Sequence record: NC_100371.1
Length of the DNA: 64,000 nucleotides
From: a phage
Strand: one strand, 5' to 3'
The position numbers were made by a program, and so were the translations under genes. The notes under the pieces are model-generated. The model was not told the DNA's origin. It was given only the letters and a program-made list of their open reading frames with translations, and made no database searches. This document shows, piece after piece, positions 3,335 through 61,730 of the stretch (the stretch's first letter is position 1; every line of letters starts with the position of its first letter).

Positions 3335-3344
3335 TCTACCTCCT

Positions 3345-39975: not shown

Positions 39976-42048
39976 TTATGAGAAGTCTGGCGGAACAACA
40001 TCTTCTACATACCCTTTCAGAGCAACCTGCCCCATATGCAGAACAGTAGAATCTCTGGCGGTAACAGTGATGCTGTCAGACATTACTTGCGGGTATGCCC
40101 ACACATACTGTTTTACCTCAGGGTATCTATACTCTATGGTTGCCATGTTTCCGCAAATACATCTCCATAAAAATTCTTGGTAATTCCTGGTTGGGTCGTA
40201 GCCATATACCGGAGCAAGCTCTTTGCTAGGAACGAACCCTGCAAGGTATTGTATTTCAGACGGTTTCCAACCTAACTTAACGATAGGTATGTTTACAGAC
40301 TCTTTTGCCTTTTCAATACCTCCCTGCATCACCCAATCGTAGCACTCAGTGCAGAAGAAATCAAGAGCACCTGCTTCCTTTTTATATTGGTCAGCAAGGT
40401 TCAGTTTTTGCGTAAGCTCGGTTTCCATAATAGTGGGGAAAAACAGTAAAGCTGTCATCTGAGCCGATGCAGCGTGTGCTTTTATTGCCTTTGAAATGGC
40501 TGCAATACGAGCGCCAAGCTTACCACGACAAAATGCTACATACTTGTCATAAACACCGCCAGTTTTAGGATCGTCAATAGTCCCAATGTCTAGTGCATAT
40601 TCACCAGTCTCATCATAAAACGCCTGCTTTGTAGGGTAGTCATAAATACAAGGCTTACGAGTATCGGTATTGAACCACCACCACGGTTCACCAATCTGCA
40701 TAATCACTGGCAGGTTGTTTCTCATAGCGGCTGATGCAAAATTCTTAAATACTGCAGTAAGGAAATTCATGCCCTCTTCAATGGTTGGAGACAGGAGGTA
40801 ACTACAAGGCGTATAGCCTGTTTTAGCATAGTTATCGTTCCAGTCTCTCTGGGTCCATTCCAACGGACAGGCATCGCTATAAAGCTCAAAGCTTACAGAC
40901 TGCATAACGTCGAAGTCATGTCGTTTGGCATTGTACATAAAATCATCATGCCATTTATAAGCTGCAGCGTTTAGAGCTCCTGTTTTGTTTATAGACCATT
41001 GGGTTCCTGACCATGTGTAGTCATAATAATGGCTCATACCAACATAATGGTTTATGGTTCCTGTATAGCCCAGACGCTTGATATTGCTCAACACCCTTAA
41101 AGGGGATACGTTCCACATATCGTCATATGCTGTGCAGATCCCAACATCGTGTTCTTTCACCTGAATATTGTTAAGTTGCATCATTTTCCAGCCTGTGTCC
41201 GGCTGAAGAAGATCTAGACGCAACTCACACTCTACATTTTCCGTTCTCGGGTCTGTGCTATTACCTACCCAATCTTTAGGCATAAGTGGTATTAGAATCC
41301 TTCTCACCTGCCGAGGATCAACACCCATCATGTTGTTGTTCTGGTCCATCCCGACGCAGTCCTCGAAATCAATATGAATTTCTGCAACATTCTTATCCTC
41401 TGAGATGCTGACAGCATATTGAGCTAAAGGAACATAGATGATTGTACCATCAACAAGGTCTACAGTCATAATCATCTTTTCAGGGGTGGAGAAGTTGCTG
41501 GCATTGGTTATTGACATTCTGAACCAAAGCTTGGTGTTTCTCATCTCGTAGTGATCATCAAATCCAATGCCGAAATGGTCATACTTGTCAACTGTTTCCC
41601 AAATGCACCCAGCCATGCCCCCATATGTTCTTGACACTAAACGGTTAATACAGCAGTTATTATCCGCAACAATACAGGTGCTTTCAGTCTGCTGTGTGGT
41701 TGTAACCCAGTATCTTGGGTGAAACATTCTCTCCTCAACTGTATCCCAAGATATTCTGTCAAGATTCTCATCTGAAACTATTGTACATTTCGCTCTTTGT
41801 GTTCCAATCATAACCCCTTGGGAGTTTGATGAAAACTCCATAAAGAAGCTCCTTGGCAACCTGTTTGGCAATTTGTCAACAATTTCTACAGGGATCTCGA
41901 TACTGGTTGCCCCAACCGGGATAGTTACATCGCCCTCAACATGATCATAATCCCTACCCGGAACTGCAGTATCCTGAACTGTGCGGTAATGAAACCGTGC
42001 AGCCATTGTAGAGTAATCACGGTAAGGTTTAAAAACAGCTGTTGCCAT
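39976..42048 (-). CDS. baseplate-associated structural protein (possible fibre or glycan-binding/hydrolase)
   Basis: 690 aa; follows gpI-like gene; N-terminal Calx-beta-like segment (RDYDHVEGDVTIPVGATSIEIPVEIVD). Confidence 0.4.
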   Translation of the reverse strand: MATAVFKPYRDYSTMAARFHYRTVQDTAVPGRDYDHVEGDVTIPVGATSIEIPVEIVDKLPNRLPRSFFMEFSSNSQGVMIGTQRAKCTIVSDENLDRISWDTVEERMFHPRYWVTTTQQTESTCIVADNNCCINRLVSRTYGGMAGCIWETVDKYDHFGIGFDDHYEMRNTKLWFRMSITNASNFSTPEKMIMTVDLVDGTIIYVPLAQYAVSISEDKNVAEIHIDFEDCVGMDQNNNMMGVDPRQVRRILIPLMPKDWVGNSTDPRTENVECELRLDLLQPDTGWKMMQLNNIQVKEHDVGICTAYDDMWNVSPLRVLSNIKRLGYTGTINHYVGMSHYYDYTWSGTQWSINKTGALNAAAYKWHDDFMYNAKRHDFDVMQSVSFELYSDACPLEWTQRDWNDNYAKTGYTPCSYLLSPTIEEGMNFLTAVFKNFASAAMRNNLPVIMQIGEPWWWFNTDTRKPCIYDYPTKQAFYDETGEYALDIGTIDDPKTGGVYDKYVAFCRGKLGARIAAISKAIKAHAASAQMTALLFFPTIMETELTQKLNLADQYKKEAGALDFFCTECYDWVMQGGIEKAKESVNIPIVKLGWKPSEIQYLAGFVPSKELAPVYGYDPTRNYQEFLWRCICGNMATIEYRYPEVKQYVWAYPQVMSDSITVTARDSTVLHMGQVALKGYVEDVVPPDFS

Positions 42049-42734
42049 TAACCCTCCTGTCTAGTTGCGTTTACTGTAATACTTTCACAATAAATGGTTG
42101 TAGTGTCCCAATCAAGTCTTACGTCAGGAACATATAACAAAGTAGCCAGCCCACCAACCCCGAACTGATTTTCTTCCCACACTGATCCAAAGCCGAGAGC
42201 TGTAGAGTCCCCTTCAAAACCAAAAGCTTGTCCTTGCGACTCCGTAAGACGCAAATGACAAGGCAATGGCAGCATATCTAAGATTTGGTCGATAGACTGC
42301 AATATGTCAAAGCAAGTTTTTCTAATGTTTATGTCAAACCTGAAATTGTCACCTTTCCACGTATCGAAATTATCTCTTCCGAACAACTGTCGTAAGGTGG
42401 AGATGACATCTTCGCGAGTACCACCTCTTGATGATGCTGCCTGCTGAATAATCAGCGTAGCACGAAAATCCGCGTCTGAAAGACCATTCCTAAGAATACC
42501 AAGTTGATTACCAACTTCGTCAAGGTATCTCCCGCTGGCATTGTTAAGCAATCTTCCTTCAGCCAAGCCTACCAGCATTTTATCAACATTCTCCAACCTT
42601 TTAAGGTACACGGTTAAGAATGTGACTAAATTAACCTTCTCAGCCAGAAAATCCCCAGAGAGGTAATCAAGACCTCCCTGAACAAAATCTGGCAGAGTGT
42701 GGATGTGGTTGACATCCGACTTAATCTCTGCCAT
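42048..42734 (-). CDS. putative baseplate wedge protein (P2 gpI / Mu gp48-like position)
   Basis: 228 aa immediately downstream of the Baseplate_J-like gene with 1-nt overlap; assignment by synteny only. Confidence 0.35.
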   Translation of the reverse strand: MAEIKSDVNHIHTLPDFVQGGLDYLSGDFLAEKVNLVTFLTVYLKRLENVDKMLVGLAEGRLLNNASGRYLDEVGNQLGILRNGLSDADFRATLIIQQAASSRGGTREDVISTLRQLFGRDNFDTWKGDNFRFDINIRKTCFDILQSIDQILDMLPLPCHLRLTESQGQAFGFEGDSTALGFGSVWEENQFGVGGLATLLYVPDVRLDWDTTTIYCESITVNATRQEG

Positions 42735-42745
42735 ATCTCACCGCC

Positions 42746-44236
42746 TTAAATAGTTTGTTGGAAAGTTATATTACTTTCGTCTAGATCAAACACCTCAGTC
42801 ATGTTTGCAACAATATCGTTTGTGGTGTAAGCTTCATCAGAGGCCCCCACAGGTTTGACTTGAATTACAAGTCTGTTAAATCTGCCTATTGACACAGCAG
42901 CCGATGCAGCACCAACCAATTGGATATTGTACAATGTATCTGCAACATCCAGTCCGTTAACAACCTGCAAAAGAGCCTCTACAATGGCATCTTTTTCGGT
43001 TGTAGAAAGCGCAGCACCTGAGTAGGTAATTCTTACATCTAGGCGGTAGGTATTTGCCTTGGAGTAATAAATCCTTTCAGTCTGACCGTCTGATGTGGTA
43101 ATATCGTAGAAGATATTCCCATAAGTTCTGTTTGTGCAAGCTATGGTTTGATACAGCGCCTGACAGATATCCTCTGTTGCACCACCAAACACCACCACTT
43201 GAAACTTATAAGGTGGTATACCTTTCGCATCCGTTTTATCGGTGTTGTTAGAGAACACTCTTACTTTCTCAACACCCTTCACCTCGCTTACAGCGCTAAG
43301 GATTGCAGGACGGGTAGCTTTAGATGTCAACTGTTTAGTGCTGGAAGCTCTTAGGCGATACTCAGAGTCTTTCTCAACATCCCTGCCCTCATTGAATCTT
43401 TCTCGGTTGGTAAGCTTGATAAATCCACTGGGAGTAGGTGACATTGTTGTCACGGTTTCTGCCTCTCTTGACAGCTCACCCGCCTCGTTAGCGATAACAT
43501 CTAGGGTGATAGTTCTTTCCCCTACAATCGGGGATACTCTGAAATCTACCCTGCTATTAAGTCCAACTTGATCAAGATTCGAATTGTACCCTATCCACAA
43601 CGTCCCTGTCAACATATCTATCTGAATTAAATCATCATTCAGCAGGGTTGTATTATCGACAATGAATTGCTTAATCTCGCCGTAAAAGCTTGGCAAATCA
43701 GAAGAGTCCAGAGCCTTATCTGTTAAAACCAGACTTTTTGTTTTGATACTTCCGTCTGTCTGGTTGGTAATTTGAAAGTTGTATTTCCCAATTCTTAGGT
43801 CTGGAGCGTTTATTCTGTGAGCAATAAGATTTCCCGCCACCTGCACATCGTTGCTAAGAACAAAGTTGCCACTGTCCAGCGTATAAGTTTTGGAATCATA
43901 AATCATATTGTACGGCACAGTTGTATTGATTGTCAACTGGCAGGTACCTGATGATTTAGAACGGCCTCTTCGGTAAATACCCTGTCTTCCAAGAAGCTCA
44001 TCCAGGTAAATACCTTCTGCCCCATATAGCGTCTGTGATGCGTATACAGATGCTGCCATAAGAATAAGTTGATATTCTCGCTCGTTGAAAATAGTGGTCA
44101 GCTTATCTGCAACTGAGTTACTTTGTACGTTGAAGTTTTCGCCAAAAGCACGGATCAGGCTTTGCTTAGTTTCAACGATTAGGTCATTTAGGGTTGGTAT
44201 AACGAAACCAGCCTCTGTCAATCCATACTTAGCCAC
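42746..44236 (-). CDS. baseplate wedge protein, Baseplate_J-like (P2 gpJ / Mu gp47 family)
   Basis: 496 aa; N-terminal MAKYGLTEAGFVIPTLNDLIVETKQSLIRAFGENF typical of Baseplate_J proteins. Confidence 0.55.
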   Translation of the reverse strand: MAKYGLTEAGFVIPTLNDLIVETKQSLIRAFGENFNVQSNSVADKLTTIFNEREYQLILMAASVYASQTLYGAEGIYLDELLGRQGIYRRGRSKSSGTCQLTINTTVPYNMIYDSKTYTLDSGNFVLSNDVQVAGNLIAHRINAPDLRIGKYNFQITNQTDGSIKTKSLVLTDKALDSSDLPSFYGEIKQFIVDNTTLLNDDLIQIDMLTGTLWIGYNSNLDQVGLNSRVDFRVSPIVGERTITLDVIANEAGELSREAETVTTMSPTPSGFIKLTNRERFNEGRDVEKDSEYRLRASSTKQLTSKATRPAILSAVSEVKGVEKVRVFSNNTDKTDAKGIPPYKFQVVVFGGATEDICQALYQTIACTNRTYGNIFYDITTSDGQTERIYYSKANTYRLDVRITYSGAALSTTEKDAIVEALLQVVNGLDVADTLYNIQLVGAASAAVSIGRFNRLVIQVKPVGASDEAYTTNDIVANMTEVFDLDESNITFQQTI

Positions 44237-44341: not shown

Positions 44342-47300
44342 TTAGTCGTGAGACTCGTTCCAAGGTCCCTGGAAGCTTGAGTTAGAACGACTAACGATCA
44401 CAGTGGGACAGGAGATTGTGACACCTGTCACGCTAGACGTTGACCACGGTGTGTAAATCTCGATAACAATGTCTATAGTTTGTTCACCCAGACCTGTTAT
44501 CCCTACCGCACACATGCCGTTGTTGTCGTTAAAATACTTCTTGCCAGCAAGGATCTGATGACCAGCTATCCATGCATTCAGCTGGGAGCTGGCAAGAGTA
44601 CCATTCAGTTTAAAGAAGAATGTTACGTTCTTACCCTGACCTGAAACGTTATCTACGTATCTCCACCTCCAACGGCAAACCCTTTGCTGGGAGTTATATA
44701 CTGGAGCACAATCTCCGTAAGTCCTGTGTGCAACGATTGCACCTTCGAACTGGTTAGCACGGATAACGGAAGCTTCTACACGTCCACGGAATGTACCTCC
44801 TGTTGCATCTATGGTCCCTCTAAAGCTACCGTTGTTGGCATAAACATCCCCACGGAAGGTACCACTGGTGGCGTTAACTGCCCCTGTGAAGTTACCTGCA
44901 CTAGCGTTAATGTTACCTTTCACCCACACATCCATAAACTGGGCGTGCCCGTTCTTGTTAATATACCAACCGTATTTGTGGTACCCATTGCCATCGTAGT
45001 TGTTTGACGAAATTTCTTGCGCGATCTTGGCAGAAGAGATCGTGCCGTTCTCTATAAAAGCGTCTTTCAAGAACGCTTGGTTGTTCTTGATTGCGAAAGC
45101 AAGGGTTGCTGTCCCATTGCCCGGGTTGTATACCGCAAAGTTGTTTGCGCTAACCATGAAATATGACTGAACTTGGCCTCCAGAGCCTTCCATGCCTAAC
45201 TGGATACCTGCCACATACTTATTCCCTGCGGAGTCTACCTGTATTTTTGTGCCCCATTGAGCATTTACTTTGCCCTCTAAGTCGGTCACAGCCTTAGATG
45301 TTGTAGCCACTGCAGCTCTGAGCTCTGACACATCCCCAACATCATCAATGATCTCCTGCTTAGCAACAGCAAGTTCTTGACGAATAGCTGACGCTGTGCC
45401 GTTAATAAGATCCACGGTTGCTTTGTTGGTATCGGAAATTGTAGCATCCAGAGCTGTCTTTGTGGAGGTCAGTTTACCATCTAAATCCTTAATCGCCTGT
45501 TTGTTGGTAGAAATCTCCCCACGTGCAGAGGTTATCTGCTCTGACAGTGCAGAGGTTTTCTGATTCAACAAATCGGTGGTGGCCTTGTTGGTATTGGCAA
45601 TCAAGGTATTGAGATCAGTTTTTGCGGTAGTTATCTTACCATCAAGGGTGGTATAGTTTTTAGATACCGTCGCGTTTGTCTGACTAATCTTTTGATCCAG
45701 GGTCTCAGAGGTCTTGTTCAAAAGATCCACTGTCGCTTTGTTGGTGCTCAGGATGCTTGCATCAAGTTCCGTTCTCTGGGTGTTGATCTTGCCATCCAGA
45801 GTTTTATCTCCGGCAAGGTATCCGCTCTCCACACCATCTATTTGTTCTACCAACTCCCCTTTGGCTGCAACCAATTTCTCGTCTAAAGCCTCTGTCTTTT
45901 TGTTCAGAAGATCAGTGGTTGCTTTATTGGTTGTCTCGATCAGGGATGCCAGTCTTCCACTTTCAGTGTTCAGATCGTTGGTGAACTTGTTCTGTGCAGC
46001 AACAAGTTTCCTATCCAGAGCTGTGATATTTCCATTGACATCCTCAAACTTCTGAGTTGTCTCTGTAACTACCGCACCTATCCTATCTCCAAGTTGTTGG
46101 AATGCCTCATCTACCCTTCCGTCCATGTACTTGTTAAGCTCTGTGACACGATTTTCAACCTCCTCGATAGAGGAATCTAAAGTGCTCATCAACTCTTTAT
46201 AAGTTTCTGTCTTTTTAAATTCAGCATCTATCTGAGGCATCAAATCTTCAATAGAGGTGTAGCAGCGTGCAGCGCATTCTACAAACTGAGAACTACCAAA
46301 AGCGTTTGTGGTTCGAATATACCAATAATAAATCTTATCGTTCTGCAGACCTTCAGATGTCCAAGTTGAACCAACACCCATACGGGTGGCTTTTGAAGTA
46401 ACGGTTGCATCACTTGTGTCCGGCAACCTTGTCATACCAGATGTCCAAAAATCATACTGGGTGCTTACACTTGCTAAGTCCCTGCTGTGCGGAATCAAGG
46501 TGATAGCAAAGTATCCCTGCTTAACTTCTACAGAAACAGGAGCTTCAGGTGCTTGAATGTTGAACTCGCAGTAGGCTTCTGGAGATACACCACCTTTATA
46601 AGATGTTGCAACCACGGTTGCTGTGTATGACCCTTTGGTCAATCCTTCTACGCGGACAAACTGCTCGACTGTTTGTGCTGTCCAAATAATCTCTCCGTTC
46701 TTTCTTACCTGCACAATATTTTGAGCATAAGTTCCAACGTTGTCCCAAGCCAAAACACCATGAGTTACTTCCCCAGCTTGAAGAACAGAGTATCTGAAGT
46801 TTTGCGGTTGAGCTACGCCGGACGGGGATATCGGAATATCCACATCTCCAGAATCCGGAAGTTGCCCTGTGGCATCATTCCACTCTTTAGCATCTTGACG
46901 GAGTTTTACCTTGACACCGCCCTTTTTGGTGAACTCCCATTCAAGAACCCTCATTTCTTGGCCCACTATACCAATACTTGGAAGGTCCATCGTAACGTAA
47001 CGCCCAGGCTTAAATTTAAAACCCCGCATATTGCAGGTTACTTCAATAATCCTGCCAGCTCTGGCACGTCTTAAGAATATTGCGGAAACACGCTGAGCCT
47101 GATAAGGACTGGTAACAAAACGATAATCTATATCAATTATCTTTCTTTCTCCGTCCTTCTCTACCCATTCAGGTACGAACACCGACGGGAAGTCTGTTTC
47201 AGAATACCCTTTGGTTGGACTGGTGAATCTTCCGGTTATTGTGTTTGATCTTTTGTCGAAGGAGGCTTCAGGATAGATCTTAACCTCACCGCAAACACAG

Positions 47301-48181
47301 TCCTCACTCAGTGTCATTGTTGCCGGGCCATAGTATGCACCTACCAGTAGACCATATTTGCCAGCCACATAGCTAAGGTCTGCACCACAAGCCTTCAGCA
47401 TCTCTGCCATAATACTTGCTGGTGCTTCGTCCATGTCGAACTCGCCATTAATGGTGTAACGGCGCTCACTGGTTCCGTCCGCGTTTTTTACAGCCTCGTC
47501 GCATATGTTGGCAGCTTCCTTGAAGGACTCCCAGTTGATGGTTTCGTCAGGACATTTAAGGTACGTTCTTAGATAGTCCAGAATCACCAAGGCAGCGTTA
47601 TTGGTATACATCTCTTTACTGATACGAGGATCATAACATTTTTTACCAACCTTGACAAGTGTAACGTTTGGCAACCCAAAAGGAAACTTGTTAGGGTCAA
47701 ACTTAAAGCTGGCACGTAGCCAACTGATACCTCTACCTATCATGTCTGGTGACCACGAAGGGCAGTGTGTTCCCATGAAAGGATCAGAGGTTTTCCTGTC
47801 GTTATGTAACTCCCACGATACCAAATCCCCATACGAGGAAATAGGATTACCGTCGATAAGTATATCTTCTATACCTTCCAAGGGATGATTGGCAAGAACA
47901 ATAGCACAATGAAGGGTTCTGTCCCTGTCCTGCTCCAAAAACGCAAGCAACCCAGATGTGCGTGTCTTCCCATACACTACAGAGCAAGGTGCAGCAGAAG
48001 ATCTGAGAAGTTTTTGTCTATCTTGCTGACTCCTGTAAGATTTGTTTCCTTCGAAAATCTTATCCAGGGTTCTGGTGGTAACAGTGTTCAGGCTGTCAGC
48101 CAGAGCTGCCTTGGATGCGTTCCAGTCATAGCTCGAAGATCTTGCAGAAGCAACGATGTTATCAATCATTGCAATTGGCAT
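44342..48181 (-). CDS. central tail fibre / host-specificity protein, lambda gpJ-like, with internal coiled-coil tandem-repeat insertion
   Basis: 1279 aa. FN3-like region (APEAPVSVEVKQGYFAITLIP ... YYWYIRTTNAFGSSQFVE) and C-terminal region (FMVSANNFAVYNPGNGTATLAF) resemble lambda J from memory; ~200-aa insertion with TNKAT[TV]DLLN-type repeats. Confidence 0.65.
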   Translation of the reverse strand: MPIAMIDNIVASARSSSYDWNASKAALADSLNTVTTRTLDKIFEGNKSYRSQQDRQKLLRSSAAPCSVVYGKTRTSGLLAFLEQDRDRTLHCAIVLANHPLEGIEDILIDGNPISSYGDLVSWELHNDRKTSDPFMGTHCPSWSPDMIGRGISWLRASFKFDPNKFPFGLPNVTLVKVGKKCYDPRISKEMYTNNAALVILDYLRTYLKCPDETINWESFKEAANICDEAVKNADGTSERRYTINGEFDMDEAPASIMAEMLKACGADLSYVAGKYGLLVGAYYGPATMTLSEDCVCGEVKIYPEASFDKRSNTITGRFTSPTKGYSETDFPSVFVPEWVEKDGERKIIDIDYRFVTSPYQAQRVSAIFLRRARAGRIIEVTCNMRGFKFKPGRYVTMDLPSIGIVGQEMRVLEWEFTKKGGVKVKLRQDAKEWNDATGQLPDSGDVDIPISPSGVAQPQNFRYSVLQAGEVTHGVLAWDNVGTYAQNIVQVRKNGEIIWTAQTVEQFVRVEGLTKGSYTATVVATSYKGGVSPEAYCEFNIQAPEAPVSVEVKQGYFAITLIPHSRDLASVSTQYDFWTSGMTRLPDTSDATVTSKATRMGVGSTWTSEGLQNDKIYYWYIRTTNAFGSSQFVECAARCYTSIEDLMPQIDAEFKKTETYKELMSTLDSSIEEVENRVTELNKYMDGRVDEAFQQLGDRIGAVVTETTQKFEDVNGNITALDRKLVAAQNKFTNDLNTESGRLASLIETTNKATTDLLNKKTEALDEKLVAAKGELVEQIDGVESGYLAGDKTLDGKINTQRTELDASILSTNKATVDLLNKTSETLDQKISQTNATVSKNYTTLDGKITTAKTDLNTLIANTNKATTDLLNQKTSALSEQITSARGEISTNKQAIKDLDGKLTSTKTALDATISDTNKATVDLINGTASAIRQELAVAKQEIIDDVGDVSELRAAVATTSKAVTDLEGKVNAQWGTKIQVDSAGNKYVAGIQLGMEGSGGQVQSYFMVSANNFAVYNPGNGTATLAFAIKNNQAFLKDAFIENGTISSAKIAQEISSNNYDGNGYHKYGWYINKNGHAQFMDVWVKGNINASAGNFTGAVNATSGTFRGDVYANNGSFRGTIDATGGTFRGRVEASVIRANQFEGAIVAHRTYGDCAPVYNSQQRVCRWRWRYVDNVSGQGKNVTFFFKLNGTLASSQLNAWIAGHQILAGKKYFNDNNGMCAVGITGLGEQTIDIVIEIYTPWSTSSVTGVTISCPTVIVSRSNSSFQGPWNESHD
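45380..46010 (-). repeat. imperfect tandem repeats (~160 bp unit, about 4 copies) inside the gpJ-like gene
   Basis: Recurrent DNA segments near 45400, 45560, 45720 and 45905 (e.g. gatccac[tg]gt[tc]gctttgttgg) encoding repeated TNKATxDLLN units. Confidence 0.55.
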
Positions 48182-48618
48182 TAATACCTCCAGACATCAA
48201 CAACGATAGAATCTTTCATGTCGAACATAAAGATCCCTTTATCACCTTTCGCCCAAATCTGGTTGTTCCAGAACACACCAGCGGTTAGCCCGTTCAGACC
48301 TTTGAAAATAACAATATCACCACGCTGAACCTGTTTAGGAGTATCCAGTCGAGTCAAAAAGAGATCAAAAATAGTAGGCAGGTGTGTGGTTTTGAAACGA
48401 AGCATGCACCATCTCTTGCTTTCCAACTCTGTTTTATATGTTCCTTCAAAGTTAGAAATAAAATCTGTTCCGTATTGGGCATCAACACACTTAGCCGCAA
48501 AGGTGCAGCAATCGTGGAATCCCCATTCAAACGGGACGGTGGCTTCTTCGTCAAACACTTTCCACAATCTTTCTTGCCAGTCTACTAAACGAGGGTGTGT
48601 GCTCATTAAACCTCCCAA
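48181..48618 (-). CDS. tail assembly protein, NlpC/P60-like (lambda gpK-like position)
   Basis: 145 aa directly upstream of gpJ-like gene (start/stop overlap); HDCCTF and GDIVIF resemble a possibly degenerate NlpC/P60 fold. Confidence 0.35.
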   Translation of the reverse strand: MGGLMSTHPRLVDWQERLWKVFDEEATVPFEWGFHDCCTFAAKCVDAQYGTDFISNFEGTYKTELESKRWCMLRFKTTHLPTIFDLFLTRLDTPKQVQRGDIVIFKGLNGLTAGVFWNNQIWAKGDKGIFMFDMKDSIVVDVWRY

Positions 48619-49172
48619 ATGATCGGGCGGCTTGCCACCTGATCCACATATTTAAAAAATCTGTCATTATCGTTTCTTGAGCTATGGCTTTCCTCTGTGT
48701 ATCGATAAGGAAAACCTCTTAACCAGCTGTTGAAGATGGAAGAGATGGATATAGACAAAGCACTATTCTCCCCTGTCTGAATAGCCATGTCTGTTATAAG
48801 GCCGTCAAACAAGCCATTAGTTGTAACAGGTAAACCATTCTCCATAGCGGTGATATATAACGTGGCACGGCAACCAGAATACTCCGTCTTCAGCAGATCA
48901 CCTACATACTTGGGATCAAACCCGTTCAATGTTGCTACCACAGATCCGAAGTTGGTGGCATCTTTCTCAGACACAGCAGTCAATGTTGCTGATCCACCTA
49001 TTCCTATAAAATGTTGCCCCTCAATCACCACAACACCAGTGCCTGAGCACACCCTGACAGTTCCTGTTGGCAGCTCTAGCTTTGCAGCAATTAAGATCTC
49101 AACACTATCAAGCTCTAGCTTTTCAAGAAATAAATTATCTAATGGCGCTCTTATCATCTTAGAAATCCTCAA
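48606..49172 (-). CDS. putative minor tail protein (lambda gpL-like position)
   Basis: 188 aa; synteny upstream of K-like and J-like genes. Confidence 0.3.
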   Translation of the reverse strand: MRISKMIRAPLDNLFLEKLELDSVEILIAAKLELPTGTVRVCSGTGVVVIEGQHFIGIGGSATLTAVSEKDATNFGSVVATLNGFDPKYVGDLLKTEYSGCRATLYITAMENGLPVTTNGLFDGLITDMAIQTGENSALSISISSIFNSWLRGFPYRYTEESHSSRNDNDRFFKYVDQVASRPIIWEV

Positions 49173-49749
49173 AGAAGTTGATAACTATATTGTCACCTTT
49201 CTGCATAGCATCAACCTTTTGCTTAATCTTATAGAGATCCCTGATATGAAATCTACCCTTCGGAGATTGAGTTATTATCTTCATAGTATCTCCTGCGGCA
49301 ATAGGTTTCCTAAGTCTTGGTGATATGTTTATAACAGCTGCCCCCACACCATCACTTCGCACTGAGGATGTTACAACTTTCAACTCATCATTGACAGATA
49401 TTTTATCCCCAGCCCTGACTATATCTCTGTTCGGTTCCCAACCAACCGTCTTCAAAAAATCGTCATTACCAGTTGGTCCTAGAGCGATTGGCTCATTGGA
49501 AGTAACTGAATGACCATAGGCCTTGATAAGAAAAATGTTTCCATCTTTGTAAACCTGATCAACAAAACTTTTAAGCTCCAATAGCTGGGACTCACTTATA
49601 TTGGAAACCGTCAAAGTTCCTTTCCAGTTGGGCGTGGCATAGGTTACTTTTTGCGTCTTACCTGTAAACGGGCTTTTAAACGTAACAATATCTGCCAGCA
49701 ACTCCAATCTAATATCTGGAAGATATCTAGGTCTTTCCCATAAAAACAT
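49159..49749 (-). CDS. putative tail protein (196 aa)
   Basis: First gene after a terminator/promoter junction; GGAGG RBS. Confidence 0.4.
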   Translation of the reverse strand: MFLWERPRYLPDIRLELLADIVTFKSPFTGKTQKVTYATPNWKGTLTVSNISESQLLELKSFVDQVYKDGNIFLIKAYGHSVTSNEPIALGPTGNDDFLKTVGWEPNRDIVRAGDKISVNDELKVVTSSVRSDGVGAAVINISPRLRKPIAAGDTMKIITQSPKGRFHIRDLYKIKQKVDAMQKGDNIVINFFEDF

Positions 49750-49854: not shown

Positions 49855-50187
49855 TTAAAGTGCTTCCAAGGTAGATACTGATGGGTCGAACATGTTCAAC
49901 CTTATCGGATCTACAATTTTTCCGCTTTTAGAGATGATATTTTCTGCATCTTCGTCCAGAGCCAGAACGTTGACATAAAACAATTTACTTTTCTCGCAAA
50001 CTGGGTAGACAACCATGTTGCCAAACTCATCCTCGGCCTCATAAGTGTCTTCAGTTTCTGTGTAAATGAACCCGACAACCTCTACAAGAAGGGTGTTTTG
50101 CAACACCTCATTCTCGTAAAAGCCGATTTCGTCCATGAAACCGTTAAAATCCTCCCTACCAGTAAACCCAAGGGTAAAAGTATTCAT
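49855..50187 (-). CDS. hypothetical protein (110 aa), possible fibre chaperone
   Basis: Start overlaps the stop of the 1479-aa fibre gene; acidic. Confidence 0.4.
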   Translation of the reverse strand: MNTFTLGFTGREDFNGFMDEIGFYENEVLQNTLLVEVVGFIYTETEDTYEAEDEFGNMVVYPVCEKSKLFYVNVLALDEDAENIISKSGKIVDPIRLNMFDPSVSTLEAL

Positions 50188-53100
50188 TATTCAACACTCT
50201 CCATCATAAGCTGGGTGTCGGTCAATGCAGAGTTCCAAACTCTTACATCTTTAATATGACCAAACAAATGTCTTTCACCTGTCGCCGTTTGACCTCCGAG
50301 ACGGATGAGAGCGCCTCCTGCCAGGAATTCCCAAGAAGATTGCGTTTCCGTACTCACCAATCCGTTAGCAAAAGAGCAGGTTTTACCGTCATCTTTTATC
50401 CTGAACCCAATTTTCAATTTACGTGTTTTAGCCATCTCATAGACACGTCTGTTTGAACCGCCAATATCACAATATGGATAACCATCTTCTGCAATATTTG
50501 CTGCAGAGCCAAATCCCATGATAAATGCAGCACCGTATTGGTGGCCCTCTGTATCAATAACTCTAGGAGCTGCGTTAGGAGCTTTTCCCCAACCTCTCCA
50601 GTTGGCATCCACCGTAGCGGCGATGGTGAACGGTCTAGGTGCTAAATTATCAGTCATTGGGAATTTACAAAGGTCTGCTGCCCTAGTCACTGGTGAAGAC
50701 CCTGTAGGGATAAACGAGGACTCACAAGATCCTAACTCGAACTGAGGTATTGCGACGTCAACCCAATCCCCTACGGCATGTTGAGAACCATCCGGTGGGG
50801 CAATCTGGAACTGGCACCCAATATTCATGTCAGAGTCCACTGCCTCAAACGTAGCAACAACTCTTATCCAAGCAGGTCCGGCTGTTTGCCATCTCTCAGC
50901 TTTTACTTTAATTCTCCCAGCTGCAACACCTGTTGTTTTAACTTCAAGTGTTGACAGGTTAACATAGGCATCACCTTGGAATACTGTGGTGGATCCGTTA
51001 TACATGTCAAATCTTACACGCAGTCTCTGGTGAGCTTTACCACCTCTTGCAATAATAGACCCAGTACAAAATTTCTCAGCACCTGTTACATCTGCACCAC
51101 GGGTGGCTGGAACTGTAGCCAGGTTTAACGCTGTTGTTTCTACACCGGATACGTTGCTTACTGTAAATCTTGCACCTTTTGTGCCGTTGGTGTTTGTTAC
51201 AGTGTTACCGACCGTAATCTGTGACTGGGCTCCCCATTTGCTCGGATCTTCACTGTTAAGCATCAGATTTGTCCTTTGACCTTCAATGAGCAGACCATCT
51301 CTTTCGAAACGTGGTTGGTTTGCCTGTGCAACAGCCATGACACCGCGCTTAGTGAAATAGGTTGCGGTAGAAGGTCTGGAGAAGATCATCTCCCCCTCAC
51401 CTAACACAGGTTTCAGGTTAGAGGTTAAAGGTAGCCACAGATCTGGCATAACTGGGGCAGTTGTACTTTCTGGGAAGCTAGTTCTCTTCCAAGGGCTCCA
51501 GTTCATTCCACTGCCAGTGTTATTATAATACCTTTCCCACGTTCCACCAAGATACATTTTATATATCTGGACACACCCTGTACCCTCGTTGGCAGAGTTT
51601 CTAAGCACGATAAGCGTACCAGCCATCTGCTGTCCTGGTGGGTAGTGTCTCTCCGCTGTGGCGTTGGCATTTGCCTCTTGATGGTAAATACCTTCGCGAT
51701 CCGCTTTGTAATCGTTAAGGTCGCTAGTTCCCAACCCTTGTCCACGGTGCTGAATAACTTTGTTCCACGCTCTGTGGTTACCCTGCTCTATGGAACGGGT
51801 GTACAGCTGATCTAAACGACCTGCCATCTGGAAAGCATAGTTTCCAGAAAATGCCACAGACAACCCACCAACAACCATTGAACCTTCAGGCCCGTTGACG
51901 TTGCCAGCCAGTATTTTGGACGGATTATTATTTCCGAACTGGTTGTTCCAGTCTGCACCTGTGTGGCATACAAAACCACCTGGGGCCGAGAAAGTACCGT
52001 CTTTGTTGAAATTGTAGAATCTGTGAGCTGTGCCAACAACATCGCGAACAATAACTTGACCCGCTTCTGGAGTAGATCTGAACTCTGCCTGACCTTTGAG
52101 ACCAGCACCATTGCCGCATTTAGAGGTAAATGTGCCGTTAGTCAGATCCTCTGTCCCATCTGATGCACACTGGAATCCTGCATTAGAGAATAACGCCTTT
52201 CTAGGACTGCTGTAGCACAAATAGTCAATACCGTCTGCCCATAGCTCGACTTTCGGCATGTTCATTTTGCTCATCACTGCATAGCGTTCAGCAGTGCCTA
52301 TATAGTGCCACTGTGTGCCGCCGCCAGTGTAGAACCCAGAAGTACCTTTGAAGTCAACAATAGGTCTGGTGTTTGTATTGTTATCTCCAAGAACAGCAAG
52401 ATTCAAGTCTGCCGACTGGAGAGGTGAAACGAACTTAACACCGTCCTGATTGTTTGTTACAGAGCCGACCTGATAATCTTGCTCTCTGGTAAACACTTCG
52501 ACAACATTTCTACTTGCGTATATGCTAACAGGGAAAGCACGAGCCTCTACATAGAAAGCAACATACTCTTGTTTACCCCTTGTTGGAGCAACCATCCCAA
52601 GAATTGCTTTTTCATTCTGGTAGAAATTTACTACCCCGTAGAAAGAGTCTCCTCTGTCTGTCCAACCACCAGTTCTATAGTGACACTGCAAGGTGGCGCA
52701 GTTCATAGGGTCACCGCCAGATGAAGATCTGGTAACTATGGTAATATCAGTGCCAGTTGCTGGAGCATAGTACGGATCTGTTCTGACGATGATCGGGTAG
52801 TATTTCCCATCTTCCATTCCTGCGGTTCTTGGCAGTGTTAAGAAGTCTTTTACACCTGCTGCTATAGGAACTTTGAACAGATTCTGAGCATCTGCTAAAG
52901 TTGTAGCCCCAGTGCCGCCTGCGGCTTGAGGTAAAGGTTCCCACTTGGCCTTCCGGTTGTTATACACACCCCATTCCAGAGTGCCGTTACCGGATTCATC
53001 CATCCCTCCATCCCAAACGACCATTTTTGCGGCTTTCTTGGATCCCCAGAACCCTCTTTCTGCTCCTGAACTACGGATCCATTCCCCAAGTCCCCAGTTT

Positions 53101-54626
53101 GTCAGCTGACCAGTGAGATCCCCAACCTGCATGTATTTAGGACAATCTAATACGCCATCCTCACGGAATCCTAAATATCTATGAGTTTCAGATCCTTTTG
53201 CACCTTTGTGGAGGTGAATTGTTAACCAAGCCTTATTATCGTTTCTTACCTCGGAGTAGATCCTATACCCATGCTCAAGAACACCGTCGGTGTCATATTT
53301 ATCCCCATGGAGAATACCTGAAGCAGATTTAACATCTCCTGAGTATTGAGCCAAGTAAAGGTGCCCGAAAGCAGGGGAGTTGTTTTTACCAAGGCCGATA
53401 TGAGATCTGAAGGTGTCATCATTCCGAGGTCTGACCATCGGCTGCCATGCAGTCCACTGGTTTGTGTTGGCCTGATAGGTTCTCAAATACCAAACATCTA
53501 CGTTAGAGAATGGATAGTATTCCTGACGACAGCCAGTGCCACCGTTAGCATTGTTCTGCCAAACAATCAGGTGACCAGCACCAGAACCTGCAGGGTAACC
53601 ATTTGCCTCAGTTGCATTAGCGGTTATCGGCTGGTAGTATATGCCGTCCTGATTACCAGTCAAGTTATTGATATTGAAATTTGCCTCAAGGGCTGCACGT
53701 TGCTTATAGAAAGCACCGATATTGATACGGACTCCAGCGGCATCTCTAGCTCCTGTACCGCCTTGCTCTATAGCAAGAGGTTGCCACGAGGCTGTTTGTT
53801 GGTTCCACATGCCCCAACGGCCTGCTGCATCAAGCTGCAAATACCCTGCCGTGTTTAAATCATCTCCGGCACGGATAACTGTTCTTGTTGGGTTGTTTGC
53901 CTCTAGGCGTTTAAATTCATCACGAAGTGCTATTCTTTTTGTTGTTGCCACACCGTTGGTCACTGCAATGGTGTACATGGCTCCGGAGGTAGCGCCACGG
54001 AAAATACCATCAACAGTTGTAGTATCACGACGAGATACCACACCGTTCAGAAATTTTTCACCAGCTGCTTCAGAAGGGTAGTTAGTAGTTCTTCCCTCTT
54101 CAATAACTGCAGGACCCACAAAGTTGACAAGGTGAATAACATCGCCTACAGTATGCACTGTACCAAAATCTACCCGCTGTGCAAGTGCTTTAGCATCGTT
54201 GGCTGTCTGAACAGTAACATCCATTACATCCTGGACAGACTGCCCTTCGGCTGTCATGATCATAGATGCGCCAATGGTAGATTCCAGCTCCTCCCTTAAG
54301 GACGGATCTGTATATACCATCCATGCAGCGTCAGTAATCCCCCCGTCGGAGTACGGTGAAGACAGTGCAGGAACAGTGTGTGGAAATTCGCCTTTCCAAC
54401 GCAGGTAGAGGTCTTCCTCTTCGAAGTAGGCAAAATCCATTGGGCCGTTTAACTTACCACCTTCCTTAAAGGAGATTACATGAGAAACAGTCCCATCCAC
54501 ATGGACAACATCGCCAATTTTTACACGACGGGTCAGGTCTGGTTGTTGAACAACCAGGTAATCATCCTCTGTCACTGCGGTAGTGGCAGGAAGAGATTCA
54601 ATTCTGACAACTTTAATATCAGCCAT
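50187..54626 (-). CDS. large tail fibre / receptor-binding protein with N-terminal anchor domain and C-terminal LamG/ConA-like lectin domain
   Basis: 1479 aa. N-terminal ~100 aa shared with 57263..57931; repeated W-x-PL-x(3-5)-GGTGA motifs; C-terminal LFGHIKDVRVWNSALTDTQL resembles the LamG-type signature. Confidence 0.6.
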   Translation of the reverse strand: MADIKVVRIESLPATTAVTEDDYLVVQQPDLTRRVKIGDVVHVDGTVSHVISFKEGGKLNGPMDFAYFEEEDLYLRWKGEFPHTVPALSSPYSDGGITDAAWMVYTDPSLREELESTIGASMIMTAEGQSVQDVMDVTVQTANDAKALAQRVDFGTVHTVGDVIHLVNFVGPAVIEEGRTTNYPSEAAGEKFLNGVVSRRDTTTVDGIFRGATSGAMYTIAVTNGVATTKRIALRDEFKRLEANNPTRTVIRAGDDLNTAGYLQLDAAGRWGMWNQQTASWQPLAIEQGGTGARDAAGVRINIGAFYKQRAALEANFNINNLTGNQDGIYYQPITANATEANGYPAGSGAGHLIVWQNNANGGTGCRQEYYPFSNVDVWYLRTYQANTNQWTAWQPMVRPRNDDTFRSHIGLGKNNSPAFGHLYLAQYSGDVKSASGILHGDKYDTDGVLEHGYRIYSEVRNDNKAWLTIHLHKGAKGSETHRYLGFREDGVLDCPKYMQVGDLTGQLTNWGLGEWIRSSGAERGFWGSKKAAKMVVWDGGMDESGNGTLEWGVYNNRKAKWEPLPQAAGGTGATTLADAQNLFKVPIAAGVKDFLTLPRTAGMEDGKYYPIIVRTDPYYAPATGTDITIVTRSSSGGDPMNCATLQCHYRTGGWTDRGDSFYGVVNFYQNEKAILGMVAPTRGKQEYVAFYVEARAFPVSIYASRNVVEVFTREQDYQVGSVTNNQDGVKFVSPLQSADLNLAVLGDNNTNTRPIVDFKGTSGFYTGGGTQWHYIGTAERYAVMSKMNMPKVELWADGIDYLCYSSPRKALFSNAGFQCASDGTEDLTNGTFTSKCGNGAGLKGQAEFRSTPEAGQVIVRDVVGTAHRFYNFNKDGTFSAPGGFVCHTGADWNNQFGNNNPSKILAGNVNGPEGSMVVGGLSVAFSGNYAFQMAGRLDQLYTRSIEQGNHRAWNKVIQHRGQGLGTSDLNDYKADREGIYHQEANANATAERHYPPGQQMAGTLIVLRNSANEGTGCVQIYKMYLGGTWERYYNNTGSGMNWSPWKRTSFPESTTAPVMPDLWLPLTSNLKPVLGEGEMIFSRPSTATYFTKRGVMAVAQANQPRFERDGLLIEGQRTNLMLNSEDPSKWGAQSQITVGNTVTNTNGTKGARFTVSNVSGVETTALNLATVPATRGADVTGAEKFCTGSIIARGGKAHQRLRVRFDMYNGSTTVFQGDAYVNLSTLEVKTTGVAAGRIKVKAERWQTAGPAWIRVVATFEAVDSDMNIGCQFQIAPPDGSQHAVGDWVDVAIPQFELGSCESSFIPTGSSPVTRAADLCKFPMTDNLAPRPFTIAATVDANWRGWGKAPNAAPRVIDTEGHQYGAAFIMGFGSAANIAEDGYPYCDIGGSNRRVYEMAKTRKLKIGFRIKDDGKTCSFANGLVSTETQSSWEFLAGGALIRLGGQTATGERHLFGHIKDVRVWNSALTDTQLMMESVE

Positions 54627-54640
54627 TCTTTCTCCTGAAA

Positions 54641-54657
54641 GGGGGCAAACAGCCCCC
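54641..54657 (-). terminator. intergenic hairpin (weak terminator/attenuator) between 865-aa and 1479-aa genes
   Basis: GGGGGC-AAACA-GCCCCC with only a short U tract on the minus-strand RNA, immediately before the RBS AGGAGAAAG of the next gene. Confidence 0.35.
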
Positions 54658-54663
54658 TATATG

Positions 54664-57940: not shown

Positions 57941-58657
57941 TTAGTTAACATCAATAGCACGACCAGACTGGTTGGCAATAGCCTCATCATTAGAGGTAGC
58001 AATAACACCAGAATATTCGCGCTCATCTGGAGCAAGCGTCCAGGTATTGCGGTTAATGGTTTGTTCTGCATCAGTCATCAGCAGATCTTTATCCTGAGTC
58101 AACAGAGAACCTACAGGGATCGGGTTTTCCATCTCAGGACCAGCATACTGGTTCCACCACGTAGCATCCCCAGTTCTAGGCAATCTGAAATTGATCAGGT
58201 AGTACAGTTTATTAGCCCACTTAATCCAACCTTCATCATCACAAAGAGAGGTTGCCCCGTCATCAGGCTGTGGGTAGGTAAACTGATCAAGACCTACGAA
58301 AGCCAGCCTTACAATCTCGTTCTCCTTGGTAACAACCTCAAAGAACGCTTGGTATGTTCTCGATCTTCGATCCATAGTAGACTGGAAGTTTATGATGTTT
58401 AGCACATCTGGCTCTTGTCTTGCCACTTCCATAATCTTGTTATCAAGAACAGTCTTCATGACCTTCTTACTGAGAAAGTCCATATAAGGGAAACCAAACA
58501 ACTCATCAAAGTACCAGCTCCCCTTCCATGTATTAAACCTCATCCACAGGCGCTGGCGCAGACTTACTTGGTTTGAATCTATCAACTCAAGACCTTTGTC
58601 TATCGCCAAATCACCTGTCTGTGGGTCCATCAATATATCACTATAAAGCGTAGCCAT
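57941..58657 (-). CDS. putative baseplate protein (gp25/W-like or Mu gp46-like)
   Basis: 238 aa; N-terminal LAIDKGLELIDSNQVSLRQRLWMRFNTWKGSWYFDELFGFPY resembles small baseplate wedge proteins. Confidence 0.4.
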   Translation of the reverse strand: MATLYSDILMDPQTGDLAIDKGLELIDSNQVSLRQRLWMRFNTWKGSWYFDELFGFPYMDFLSKKVMKTVLDNKIMEVARQEPDVLNIINFQSTMDRRSRTYQAFFEVVTKENEIVRLAFVGLDQFTYPQPDDGATSLCDDEGWIKWANKLYYLINFRLPRTGDATWWNQYAGPEMENPIPVGSLLTQDKDLLMTDAEQTINRNTWTLAPDEREYSGVIATSNDEAIANQSGRAIDVN

Positions 58658-58669
58658 TCAAGCCCTCTA

Positions 58670-60348: not shown

Positions 60349-60728
60349 TATTCTAACCCTTGCTGTTCCTTGTAAAGATCAACTGGAGTACCGTATACAA
60401 GTTGCAACTCAGATCTTGCTCCAAGGTTGTATCTTCCAACTCTCCCCCAATATTGATCGTCTTTAAACGACAGCGCCATCAATCTACCTTTCGGTAAATC
60501 GTCTCTGTAATGCAGTCCGTCTAGAATATCTTGACAAGCTGTTACTTTTCTGGTTACTAAAGGGCTGTCACCTACCGGACCAAGAGATAACCACCAGGAC
60601 TCATCCCTCTCATTCCATTGCATACGCATTTCATACGTCTCATTGTCTAAAACAACACGCATGGTTTGATCAGGAAAGCCGTCAATGTCCCACACAAAGG
60701 TGATTATGCACCAATCTTTAAGCTCCAT
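60348..60728 (-). CDS. putative small baseplate/tail protein (126 aa)
   Basis: Co-oriented tightly packed ORF between the TMP-proximal gene and hub. Confidence 0.35.
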   Translation of the reverse strand: MELKDWCIITFVWDIDGFPDQTMRVVLDNETYEMRMQWNERDESWWLSLGPVGDSPLVTRKVTACQDILDGLHYRDDLPKGRLMALSFKDDQYWGRVGRYNLGARSELQLVYGTPVDLYKEQQGLE

Positions 60729-60739
60729 TGCACGCCCCC

Positions 60740-61651: not shown

Positions 61652-61701
61652 CTAGATATTGTATCATAAAATAGCCGTTTTTACAACACCGATAAAATAA
61701 A

Positions 61702-61717
61702 GGGGGCCGGAGCCCCC
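61702..61717 (-). terminator. intrinsic terminator-like hairpin after the tape-measure gene
   Basis: GGGGGC-N4-GCCCCC followed by UUUAUUUUAU on the minus-strand RNA. Confidence 0.5.
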
Positions 61718-61730
61718 TATGTGCCGTTTA

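Follow-up and report, generated by a model that had tools for sequence, protein, structure and literature searches.

The window analysed here, the whole 64,000-nucleotide stretch of phage DNA in record NC_100371.1, carries on its minus strand the gene for a gpJ-like tail fibre protein together with three upstream partner genes. The features of this locus, with the evidence by which each was assigned, are as follows.

44342..48181, minus strand: gpJ-like tail fibre gene, orthologue of rV5 gp37 (ORF, 1279 aa)
48181..49749, minus strand: three upstream partner genes, 145 aa (DUF6950), 188 aa ('tail protein') and 196 aa ('distal tail protein') (Pfam, PHROG)
46706..48181, minus strand: N-terminal hub-type domains, aa 1-492 (identity to a Seuratvirus J-like protein, weak T5 pb3 match)
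46226..46705, minus strand: two FNIII/Ig-like domains, aa 493-652 (Pfam Ig_J and Ig_J_second)
45254..46252, minus strand: predicted alpha-helical shaft, aa 644-976, ~333 aa (AlphaFold2 helix, hydrophobic periodicity)
45977..46252, minus strand: proximal shaft with degenerate unit, aa 644-735 (U0 similarity, LD[GR]K[IL] motif)
45791..45976, minus strand: repeat unit 1, aa 736-797, 62 aa (pairwise scores, alignment)
45791..45835, minus strand: Gly-rich stretch in unit 1, aa 783-797, four Gly (possible hinge)
45638..45790, minus strand: repeat unit 2, aa 798-848, 51 aa (pairwise scores, alignment)
45476..45637, minus strand: repeat unit 3, aa 849-902, 54 aa (pairwise scores, alignment)
45314..45475, minus strand: repeat unit 4, aa 903-956, 54 aa (pairwise scores, alignment)
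45254..45313, minus strand: junction with degenerate terminal unit, aa 957-976, TTSKAVTDLEGKVNAQW (similarity to the remaining units, z = 3-5)
44891..45313, minus strand: beta-prism 'tail tip' domain, aa 957-1097 (Pfam Phage_Tail_Tip, E = 2.4e-38, passing its cut-off)
44345..44890, minus strand: C-terminal distal domain, aa 1098-1279 (position, by lambda domain order)

The 1279-aa product shares 100% identity with the Escherichia phage vB_EcoM-ECP26 tail fibre and matches PHROG 31 ('central tail fiber J') at E = 2.5e-162, and virions of rV5 were found by mass spectrometry to contain gp37 (PMC3606486). Whole-protein alignment to a Seuratvirus J-like tail tip protein gave ~53% identity, and aa 243-472 showed a weak match to the T5 hub protein pb3 (E = 3e-4). 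Within the FNIII/Ig-like pair, which aligns with lambda gpJ residues 666-806, Ig_J_second (aa 547-652) passed its Pfam cut-off at E = 1.4e-30 and Ig_J (aa 493-545) scored 24.1 bits, below the cut-off of 29 bits. The succession of FNIII/Ig pair, predicted helix and Phage_Tail_Tip domain follows the J-type plan according to Pfam and to alignment with 8iyk_J; judged by this domain order and by the hub-type N-terminal domains, the protein is a member of the J-like family. The counterpart of the beta-prism in lambda gpJ forms the central straight fibre (PMC11101478), and by analogy the distal domain (aa 1098-1279) is presumed to be the receptor-binding end.

Between the FNIII/Ig pair and the prism lie four tandem units of 62, 51, 54 and 54 aa followed by a degenerate terminal copy, which bears out the original prediction that about 200 aa of the protein consist of repeated ~50-aa units. 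All four units have in common the motif T-N-K-A-T-x-D-L, with T-N-K-A-T at aa 751, 813, 864 and 918, and a degenerate version, T-S-K-A-V-T-D-L, is found at aa 961. BLOSUM62 local scores for all six pairs of units 1-4 were 81-111 in comparison to 27-32 (± 5-6) for shuffled sequences, giving z = 10-13 with none of 300 shuffles reaching the observed scores, and 11 columns of the four-unit alignment are invariant. The proximal segment U0 (aa 691-735) also resembles unit 1 (z = 4.7) and contains the LD[GR]K[IL] motif. Both ends of the region are conserved: the first ~20 residues of the proximal shaft are kept in all length alleles and in siphoviral relatives, and the junction at aa 957-976, which aligns with lambda residues 844-863, is likewise kept in every allele and, as ETSKAVVDLEGNVNAQWG, in siphovirus-like relatives of ~60 kb.

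The repeat shows at the level of the protein. In the DNA it is weak and consists of a 30-nt core family only, with spacings of 162, 153 and 186 nt; nucleotide identity of the units is 63% as a column mean in a gapped alignment and 47-50% ungapped. An earlier description as ~160-bp imperfect DNA repeats thus holds only loosely. Because the DNA repeat is too diverged, Tandem Repeats Finder missed the unit array and reported only a 7-nt micro-repeat between 44000 and 48000. The GC content of the cassette is 0.44 in comparison to 0.46 for the whole gene, which ruled out a foreign base composition.

AlphaFold2, run on a single sequence as a single chain, predicted a helix from aa 644 to 976 with one 7-residue break at aa 785-791, at modest confidence (pLDDT 55-78). 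The beta domains were poorly modelled (pLDDT <50 beyond aa ~975), so the model was used for the helix assignment only, and a Foldseek search of it against the PDB gave no match at E <= 0.001. The 333 residues of the shaft include one Pro and no Cys. A plain heptad register required constant register shifts, and Fourier analysis was used instead: it identified a hydrophobic periodicity of 3.62-3.64 in all three length alleles and none at 3.50, with a power of 200 in comparison to a shuffle maximum of 47 (0 of 300 shuffles reached 200). The hydrophobic phase remains within ±32 degrees along the entire shaft, and the core of this seam is rich in L, I, T, V and N, with N752 and T755 located on it. 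The unit lengths found (44, 47, 51, 54 and 62) can each be written as 7a+11b. The predicted helix and the coherent amphipathic seam agree with the helical stalk proposed originally; the location given for it, 45380-46010 (aa 724-934), does contain repeats, but the helical extent is larger, at 45254-46252.

These properties fit a straight bundle of mixed heptads and hendecads, ~50 nm long if extended. In lambda gpJ the corresponding alpha-helical shaft has 53 residues (809-861) arranged as a three-helix bundle (PDB 8IYK, 8XCI; Ge et al. 2024, PMC11101478) and is followed by a beta-prism built of three chains (PMC11101478); from this, and from a likeness to the gp26 tail needle, we infer that the shaft described here would be trimeric and parallel. 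The interval from Ig_J_second to Phage_Tail_Tip is 55 aa long in the nearest siphoviral J protein but reaches 225, 304 and 406 aa in the Vequintavirus alleles, and the insertion anticipated inside the gpJ-like protein is indeed present, as ~280 extra aa relative to both lambda gpJ and that siphoviral protein. When the shaft was compared by HMMER with 1.84 billion representative proteins, just five matches reached E <= 1e-3: two were Vequintavirus J alleles, and the other three were coiled coils of a generic kind or with other repeats. They offered no wider family for a profile.

Comparison of copy number among related phages, as suggested with the original prediction, did reveal differences, with relatives carrying 3, 4 or 6 units in proteins of 1199, 1279 and 1381 aa, respectively. 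Sequenced-phage records of the three alleles number about 55, 16 and 45. Loci from metagenomes and IMG/VR can be assigned to these three classes by their spacers (341, 443 and 261), 10 environmental loci from ~136-kb phages showing these values only, and spacers in ~60-kb siphovirus-like relatives are 90 or 125-126. DNA identity between alleles is 97-100% or ~92% in the flanks in comparison to 40-75% in the cassette, where pS is 0.74-0.78 in comparison to a flank dS of 0.05-0.47. Because their synonymous divergence is saturated, the three length classes are best described as discrete, old alleles, and saturated synonymous sites in a cassette lying between flanks of 92-100% identity point to cassette exchange by homologous recombination through the conserved flanks. 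The dN/dS value of the cassette was ~0.04, a ratio indicative of strong purifying selection that, with the saturated synonymous sites, ruled out positive selection behind the cassette divergence.

The position of the protein in the particle was considered from its gene neighbourhood. Close relatives are assigned to Vequintavirus, which is contractile-tailed, and the window holds separate hub, spike and tube-initiator genes of this myovirus: a tape-measure candidate at 61731-63920 followed by a Dit-like tube initiator, the hub and a gp138-like spike. The J module lies ~9 kb from this set, adjoining wedge genes, and so is not placed as in siphoviruses, where J comes straight after the tape-measure and tip partners and is the sole hub, at the tip of a non-contractile tail tube. 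The protein had been called a gpJ-like central fibre; gpJ-like it is, but the label 'central' is doubtful because the myovirus encodes its own hub and spike, and GenBank annotates the product as a lateral tail fibre. The three partner genes are 45%, 40% and 33% identical to those preceding J in Seuratvirus KurtStettler. Particles of rV5 display thin fibres of ~70 nm (PMC3606486), and by analogy the FNIII-to-tip distance here may be ~71 nm, obtained by exchanging the ~8-nm shaft within the 29.7 nm of lambda for one of ~50 nm. A broader scenario, which we regard as rather improbable, would have a contractile-tailed phage capture a complete tail-tip complex (J plus the Dit-like, 'tail protein' and DUF6950 proteins) from a Queuovirinae-like siphovirus and employ it as a peripheral fibre, the shaft corresponding to the ~70-nm rV5 fibres, the 3-, 4- and 6-unit cassettes tuning reach through surface glycans, and a lambda-like collapse triggered by the receptor possibly drawing the baseplate cellward.

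Overall, the reading that we favour, with a probability of about 0.68, is that the units build an enlarged alpha-helical shaft whose old length alleles are exchanged through the flanks. The units would be the building blocks of a lambda-type shaft expanded from 53 to ~333 residues, and would go back to an ancient series of duplications, the duplicated unit of 44-62 aa having its origin in the C-terminal junction motif T-S-K-A-V-x-D-L-E-G of the shaft. As unit lengths are sums of heptads and hendecads, the seam with its period of 3.63 would be held in phase from end to end, as expected of three parallel, nearly unsupercoiled helices, with the Asn and Thr of TNKAT placed in the bundle core. The shaft would most likely act as a rigid spacer that sets the reach of the distal binding domain from the particle. 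The Vequintavirus pool would then hold the shaft as three discrete alleles, with 3, 4 and 6 units (~38, 50 and 65 nm), that pass between near-identical genes by homologous recombination in conserved flanks and that are probably not products of present-day recombination between repeats.

Alternatively, shaft length may be adaptively meaningless, the spacer being tolerant and its three alleles neutral passengers of recombination. We consider this unlikely, although it retains an appreciable chance. Alleles that differ in shaft are 98-100% identical in the DNA of the distal domain, and with the same distal domain in all three, selection could be indifferent to length; the alleles have no known correlate in host range, and coiled-coil rods tolerate inserted units, as does the P22 needle in structure 4LIN, which we take to be an engineered, extended form. 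Against neutrality stand the low dN/dS of the cassette, the persistence of three old alleles at comparable frequencies and the preservation of helical register by all indels, as the length differences of 80 and 102 aa correspond to 22.0 and 28.1 turns.

A different geometry, in which the helices fold back, for instance at the Gly-rich aa 783-797, into an antiparallel or hairpin-like compact domain rather than a 50-nm rod, appears quite improbable. The sole predicted helix break does fall at this site, but the shaft has one narrow hydrophobic stripe that continues in phase across it, and the 3-unit allele, from which 18 aa from G787 (GYLAGDKTLDGKINTQRT) and hence most of the Gly-rich stretch are deleted, keeps the same architecture. 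Sub-threshold Pfam matches to apolipoprotein-type helical bundles are weak, at 17.7 bits in comparison to a cut-off of 90. The lambda shaft is able to flip and wrap back onto the prism once the receptor is bound (PMC11101478), which offers a precedent for folding back; the N-terminal end here must nevertheless meet FNIII-2 and the C-terminal end a three-chain prism, which fits a parallel arrangement, and the thin rV5 fibres likewise favour an extended shaft.

There is a slim chance that the shaft transmits a signal or collapses as in lambda, so that its expansion would multiply fibre shortening and pull the particle to the cell surface. Lambda junction residues 841-861 turn into beta-sheet (PMC11101478) and have a conserved counterpart at aa 957-976, and the polar Asn/Thr core layers, one per unit, could reduce local stability. 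However, the repeated part is without a lambda counterpart, and a myovirus, which brings its own hub, spike and contraction trigger, may have no use for a tube-opening signal through J. The least probable reading, now largely refuted, is the one offered originally, a recombination-prone array whose copy number changes readily and causes ongoing variation of stalk length within populations: relatives do differ in copy number and the units are clearly of duplication origin, but within each of the three alleles the units are no more than 40-64% identical in nucleotide sequence and match exactly over 15 nt at most, no array was detected by Tandem Repeats Finder, the protein has exactly 1279 aa in 121 of 121 distinct close relatives, with a shaft diversity (0.013) similar to that of its remainder, length classes are separated by saturated synonymous divergence and environmental loci take just three spacer values, so that by these sequence measures the DNA is not a contingency-type array.

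Fibre length sets the reach of a phage through O-antigen or capsule to its receptor, and modular shafts are handy engineering handles. The alleles provide a natural series of shafts attached to proteins that are identical elsewhere, and they occur in a phage group with wide application in the biocontrol of E. coli O157. The effect of length on adsorption and host range is therefore directly testable.

Among known systems, lambda gpJ has the same domain order and the same shaft site between FNIII-2 and the beta-prism, and the shaft ends described here align with lambda residues ~811-850 and 844-863. The lambda counterpart is a short signal-transmitting bundle without tandem units, whereas here units of 51-62 aa have enlarged it about six-fold, and in a myovirus with separate hub and spike a role in tail-tube opening is not expected. 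The closest relative outside Vequintavirus is the Queuovirinae J-like tail tip protein of Seuratvirus KurtStettler (bas22_0020), which shares 53% identity, the three upstream partner genes and the shaft ends; its shaft of ~55 aa lacks repeats, and its gene follows the tape-measure in a normal siphovirus tail tip. A larger expansion at the same site is found in gpJ of the lambdoid phage mEp021 (MH706966), with a 745-aa spacer of ~14 tandem 36-aa units and a period of 3.60. The mEp021 unit (VNASISxLDKKTDASVxRLDQAIADETSAR) is unrelated, with 28% identity to the present shaft, and mEp021 is a siphovirus in which J is a true central fibre. Tandem repeats have thus lengthened the J-type shaft on at least two independent occasions.

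Segmented or stuttered trimeric coiled coils, as in phage fibres (T4 fibritin) and the stalks of trimeric autotransporter adhesins, form long parallel rods with non-heptad insertions and polar Asn layers in the core. The periodicity of 3.63 and the core Asn and Thr of the present shaft are similar in kind, and no sequence relationship to fibritin or adhesin stalks was found. The closest precedent for a shaft of variable length is the P22-like tail needle gp26 (P22, Sf6, HS1), a comparable mosaic of conserved ends and a variable-length coiled-coil shaft; the HS1 and Sf6 needles are 98% identical in the N-terminal domain, 99% in the knob and 67% in the shaft, which has 16 and 11 heptads, respectively (PMC3741392). 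The repeat unit resembles the trimeric helical core of gp26 (4lin_A residues 100-222, E = 7e-5; z = 5.6). The present protein nevertheless lies outside the needle family, which differs in virion position, as the N-terminal plug domain of gp26 is absent and the shaft alone matches, the remainder being J-like. The needle is described as heptad-based, in comparison to the heptad/hendecad mixture here, and the present shaft is two to three times longer. Repeat-built variation in fibre length is a real and fairly ordinary phage route.

The repeats lie in a gpJ-like tail fibre protein that matches the Escherichia phage vB_EcoM-ECP26 (ECP26) tail fibre at 100% identity and was assigned by PHROGs to 'central tail fiber J' (E=2.5e-162). 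DNA identity of the gene was 93-97% to rV5, FV3 and ~100 other Vequintavirus genomes (~136 kb). The orthologue in rV5, a phage described as contractile-tailed, is gp37 (1279 aa), which was found in virions by mass spectrometry (PMC3606486).

Gene and Pfam domains
44342..48181, minus strand: gpJ-like tail fibre gene (ORF, 1279 aa), containing the repeats
aa 493-545, minus-strand ORF: Ig_J (24.1 bits, just under the 29-bit cut-off)
aa 547-652, minus-strand ORF: Ig_J_second
aa 957-1097, minus-strand ORF: Phage_Tail_Tip

Alignment with the solved lambda gpJ (8iyk) paired aa 497-684 with J 666-850 and aa 957-1115 with J 844-990, leaving ~270-280 residues between the aligned blocks that have no lambda counterpart. 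The repeats occupy exactly the shaft position of lambda gpJ.

The original prediction had proposed tandem protein repeats at 45380-46010 (aa 724-934), and these were recovered. A T-N-K-A-T-x-D-L motif recurs at aa 751, 813, 864 and 918, with a degenerate copy (T-S-K-A-V-T-D-L) at aa 961, and unit borders at aa 736, 798, 849 and 903 define units 1-4 of 62, 51, 54 and 54 aa. All six pairwise local alignments of these units scored 81-111 (z=10-13), a level reached in 0 of 300 shuffles, and 11 columns of the four-unit alignment were invariant; weaker copies were found upstream (aa 691-735) and in the terminal 20 residues (z=3-5). The further claim of ~160-bp imperfect DNA repeats held only in part: a single 30-nt core family recurs at spacings of 162, 153 and 186 nt, but Tandem Repeats Finder reported no array for the shaft repeats. 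Mean column identity of the unit DNA was 63% when gapped, and ungapped identity was 47-50%. The shaft repeat is genuine at the protein level, old in origin and faint in the DNA. A metagenomic protein of 482 aa (P0123) carries many tandem 22-aa repeats (NYTTLDTKIDxTKxELxxxIS, two hendecads) that resemble the LDGKITTAKTDL half of the shaft unit (36% identity, E=1.5e-8) and may represent a related fibre coiled-coil module.

Single-sequence AlphaFold2 modelling of aa 640-1100 (pLDDT 55-78 in the shaft helix, poor in the beta domains) gave a helix over aa 644-976 with a sole interruption at aa 785-791, and the shaft contains one proline and no cysteine. By Fourier analysis, hydrophobicity peaked sharply at 3.62-3.64 residues, both in the ECP26-type shaft and in the other two alleles, with a power of ~200 in comparison to a shuffle maximum of ~47 (0/300 shuffles) and hardly any power at 3.50. 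Across all 333 shaft residues, the hydrophobic moment kept its local phase to within +/-32 degrees. A period of 3.63 is what mixed heptads and hendecads should give, as in a nearly unsupercoiled bundle; unit lengths of 44, 47, 51, 54 and 62 aa all equal 7a+11b. Seam residues were L (23), I (15), T (11), V (9) and N (6), where the Asn and second Thr of the TNKAT motif are included. By analogy, we infer a three-chain parallel arrangement, as lambda has a flanking FNIII trimer and a three-chain prism and among PDB entries the repeat region best matched the trimeric helical core of a P22-type tail needle (4lin_A, E=7e-5; z=5.6 against shuffles, in comparison to z=1-2 for other J shafts). If extended at 0.15 nm/residue, the shaft would measure ~50 nm versus ~8 nm in lambda, and exchanging these lengths within the 29.7-nm lambda FNIII-to-tip distance gives ~71 nm for the window's fibre, a figure that is suggestive only. 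A Gly-rich stretch at aa 783-797 (window 45791-45835; four Gly in 15 residues) lies in the longest unit, spans the sole predicted helix break and could be a hinge dividing the rod into segments of ~21 and ~28 nm; a deletion in the 3-unit allele removes 18 aa starting at G787 (GYLAGDKTLDGKINTQRT), which the 4- and 6-unit alleles retain.

Outside Vequintavirus, the siphovirus KurtStettler (Seuratvirus) has the nearest relative, a J-like tail tip protein (53% whole-protein identity) whose shaft is only ~55 aa and lacks repeats in contrast to the repeat-built shaft of Vequintavirus. Within Vequintavirus the protein falls into three length classes, found in roughly 55, 16 and 45 records of the phage collection.

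Shaft alleles in Vequintavirus (spacer, distance from Ig_J_second to Phage_Tail_Tip; full units counted without the terminal copy)
APECc02 type: 1199 aa; 3 full units + terminal copy; spacer 225 aa
ECP26/rV5 type (window's allele): 1279 aa; 4 full units + terminal copy; spacer 304 aa
NHEP1 type: 1381 aa; 6 full units + terminal copy; spacer 406 aa

The original prediction of a helical stalk whose length varies thus holds. The NHEP1 shaft equals the ECP26 shaft plus two more 44-aa units and a 14-aa insertion, and the allele differences of 80 and 102 aa correspond to 22.0 and 28.1 helical turns, so that helical register is kept. In environmental contigs of ~136 kb, 10 of 10 loci belonged to the three known classes (FVEC-to-AQWG spacers of 341, 443 and 261 aa), and seven loci on siphovirus-like contigs of ~60 kb (one short) had spacers of 90 or 125-126 aa. 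The J-like gene of Escherichia phage vB_Eco_Alma is annotated as overlapping CDS (1500-3842 and 3829-5100) with the break inside the helical shaft, past the first repeat unit; a frameshift, a sequencing error or a truly split fibre gene would each explain this. Eighteen 'Campylobacter phage' GenBank records (e.g. MG065655, MG065658, MG065661) also carry the gene at ~93% DNA identity, and their ~135-140-kb genomes are typical of E. coli rV5-like phages; their Campylobacter jejuni host labels look doubtful.

In the flanks on either side of the shaft, sliding-window DNA identity to ECP26 was 97-100% for NHEP1 and ~92% for APECc02; inside the shaft it dropped to 40-75%, and the breakpoints differed between the two comparisons. 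Nei-Gojobori estimates for ECP26 and NHEP1 gave flank dS of 0.13 and 0.05, while the cassette, the allele-specific part of the shaft, had a saturated pS of 0.74, a dN of 0.14 and dN/dS of ~0.04. These values mark the cassettes as old, functionally constrained alleles, which appear to have been recombined into near-identical genes through conserved flanks; cassette GC did not differ from gene GC. Length change by recombination between repeats, as originally proposed, is unlikely at present judging from the sequences, because nucleotide identity between units is only 40-64% and their exact matches extend over <=15 nt (NHEP1's three adjacent 44-aa units included) and all 121 distinct close relatives are exactly 1279 aa. 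This constant length and the saturated synonymous sites also argue against a rapid tempo of length change; shaft amino-acid diversity among close relatives was 0.013, not above the rest of the protein. Rapid in-place diversification of the cassettes is contradicted by the same pS and dN/dS.

Genes bearing on the 'central fibre' label
42746-44236: Baseplate_J wedge genes
within 48181-49749: 196-aa gene before J, PHROG 'distal tail protein' (33% identity to KurtStettler counterpart)
within 48181-49749: 188-aa gene before J, 'tail protein' (40% identity to KurtStettler counterpart)
within 48181-49749: 145-aa gene before J, DUF6950 (45% identity to KurtStettler counterpart)
58670-59347: gp138-like spike
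59347-60348: hub homologue (35% identity to phi92 gp137)
60740-61651: Dit-like tube initiator
61731-63920: probable tape-measure protein (position and size only)

The 'central fibre' label is probably wrong, as the same window encodes its own tube initiator, hub, gp138-like spike and wedge. With its siphovirus-type partner genes, the protein is J-like by descent, in a contractile-tailed phage. The KurtStettler counterparts of the three partner genes likewise precede its J gene, and phi92, a related myovirus with a solved baseplate, lacks the distal tail protein, tail protein, DUF6950 and J module. The complete four-gene siphovirus-type tail-tip module (48181-49749 and 44342-48181; 33-53% identical to Seuratvirus) forms an insertion directly upstream of the wedge genes and co-occurs with the canonical set (57941-63920, 42048-44236). 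The myoviral J N-terminus (window 48070-48181, aa 1-37) is polar, unlike that of siphoviral J (L002 2848-3000), which is hydrophobic, Ala/Gly-rich and has a 14-aa insertion (LVIGMAATAAGALL); contacts inside the tail tube may have been lost. Neighbouring large fibre genes (39976-42048 and 50187-57261) encode proteins of 690, 1479 and 865 aa whose relatives carry glycosidase or deacetylase domain annotations, and the phage AlexBoehm orthologue of the 690-aa protein is annotated as a glycosidase/deacetylase fibre.

For rV5-like phages, no published description of the repeats or of the three shaft alleles was found in the literature, and the BASEL paper mentions allelic variation of large fibre genes in general terms only. 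The locus offers a natural series of three shaft lengths in a protein that is otherwise identical, together with a siphovirus tail-tip module inside a myovirus. The same combination of near-identical ends and a divergent shaft of differing length occurs in P22-like tail needles: identity between the HS1 and Sf6 needles is 98% for the N-terminal domain and 99% for the knob, but only 67% for a coiled-coil shaft of 16 and 11 heptads, respectively (PMC3741392). In the gpJ of lambdoid phage mEp021, Ig_J_second and Phage_Tail_Tip stand 745 aa apart; the spacer, at the same site as the window's shaft, is built from ~14 tandem 36-aa units (VNASISxLDKKTDASVxRLDQAIADETSAR; C-terminal part, translated residues ~880-1360) with a hydrophobic period of 3.60 and is an independent, larger expansion of the same shaft. 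The needles and mEp021 gpJ indicate that shaft expansion recurs in J proteins and phage fibres generally, and the Vequintavirus shaft is a well-defined new case among the known modular, variable-length helical shafts of phage fibres.
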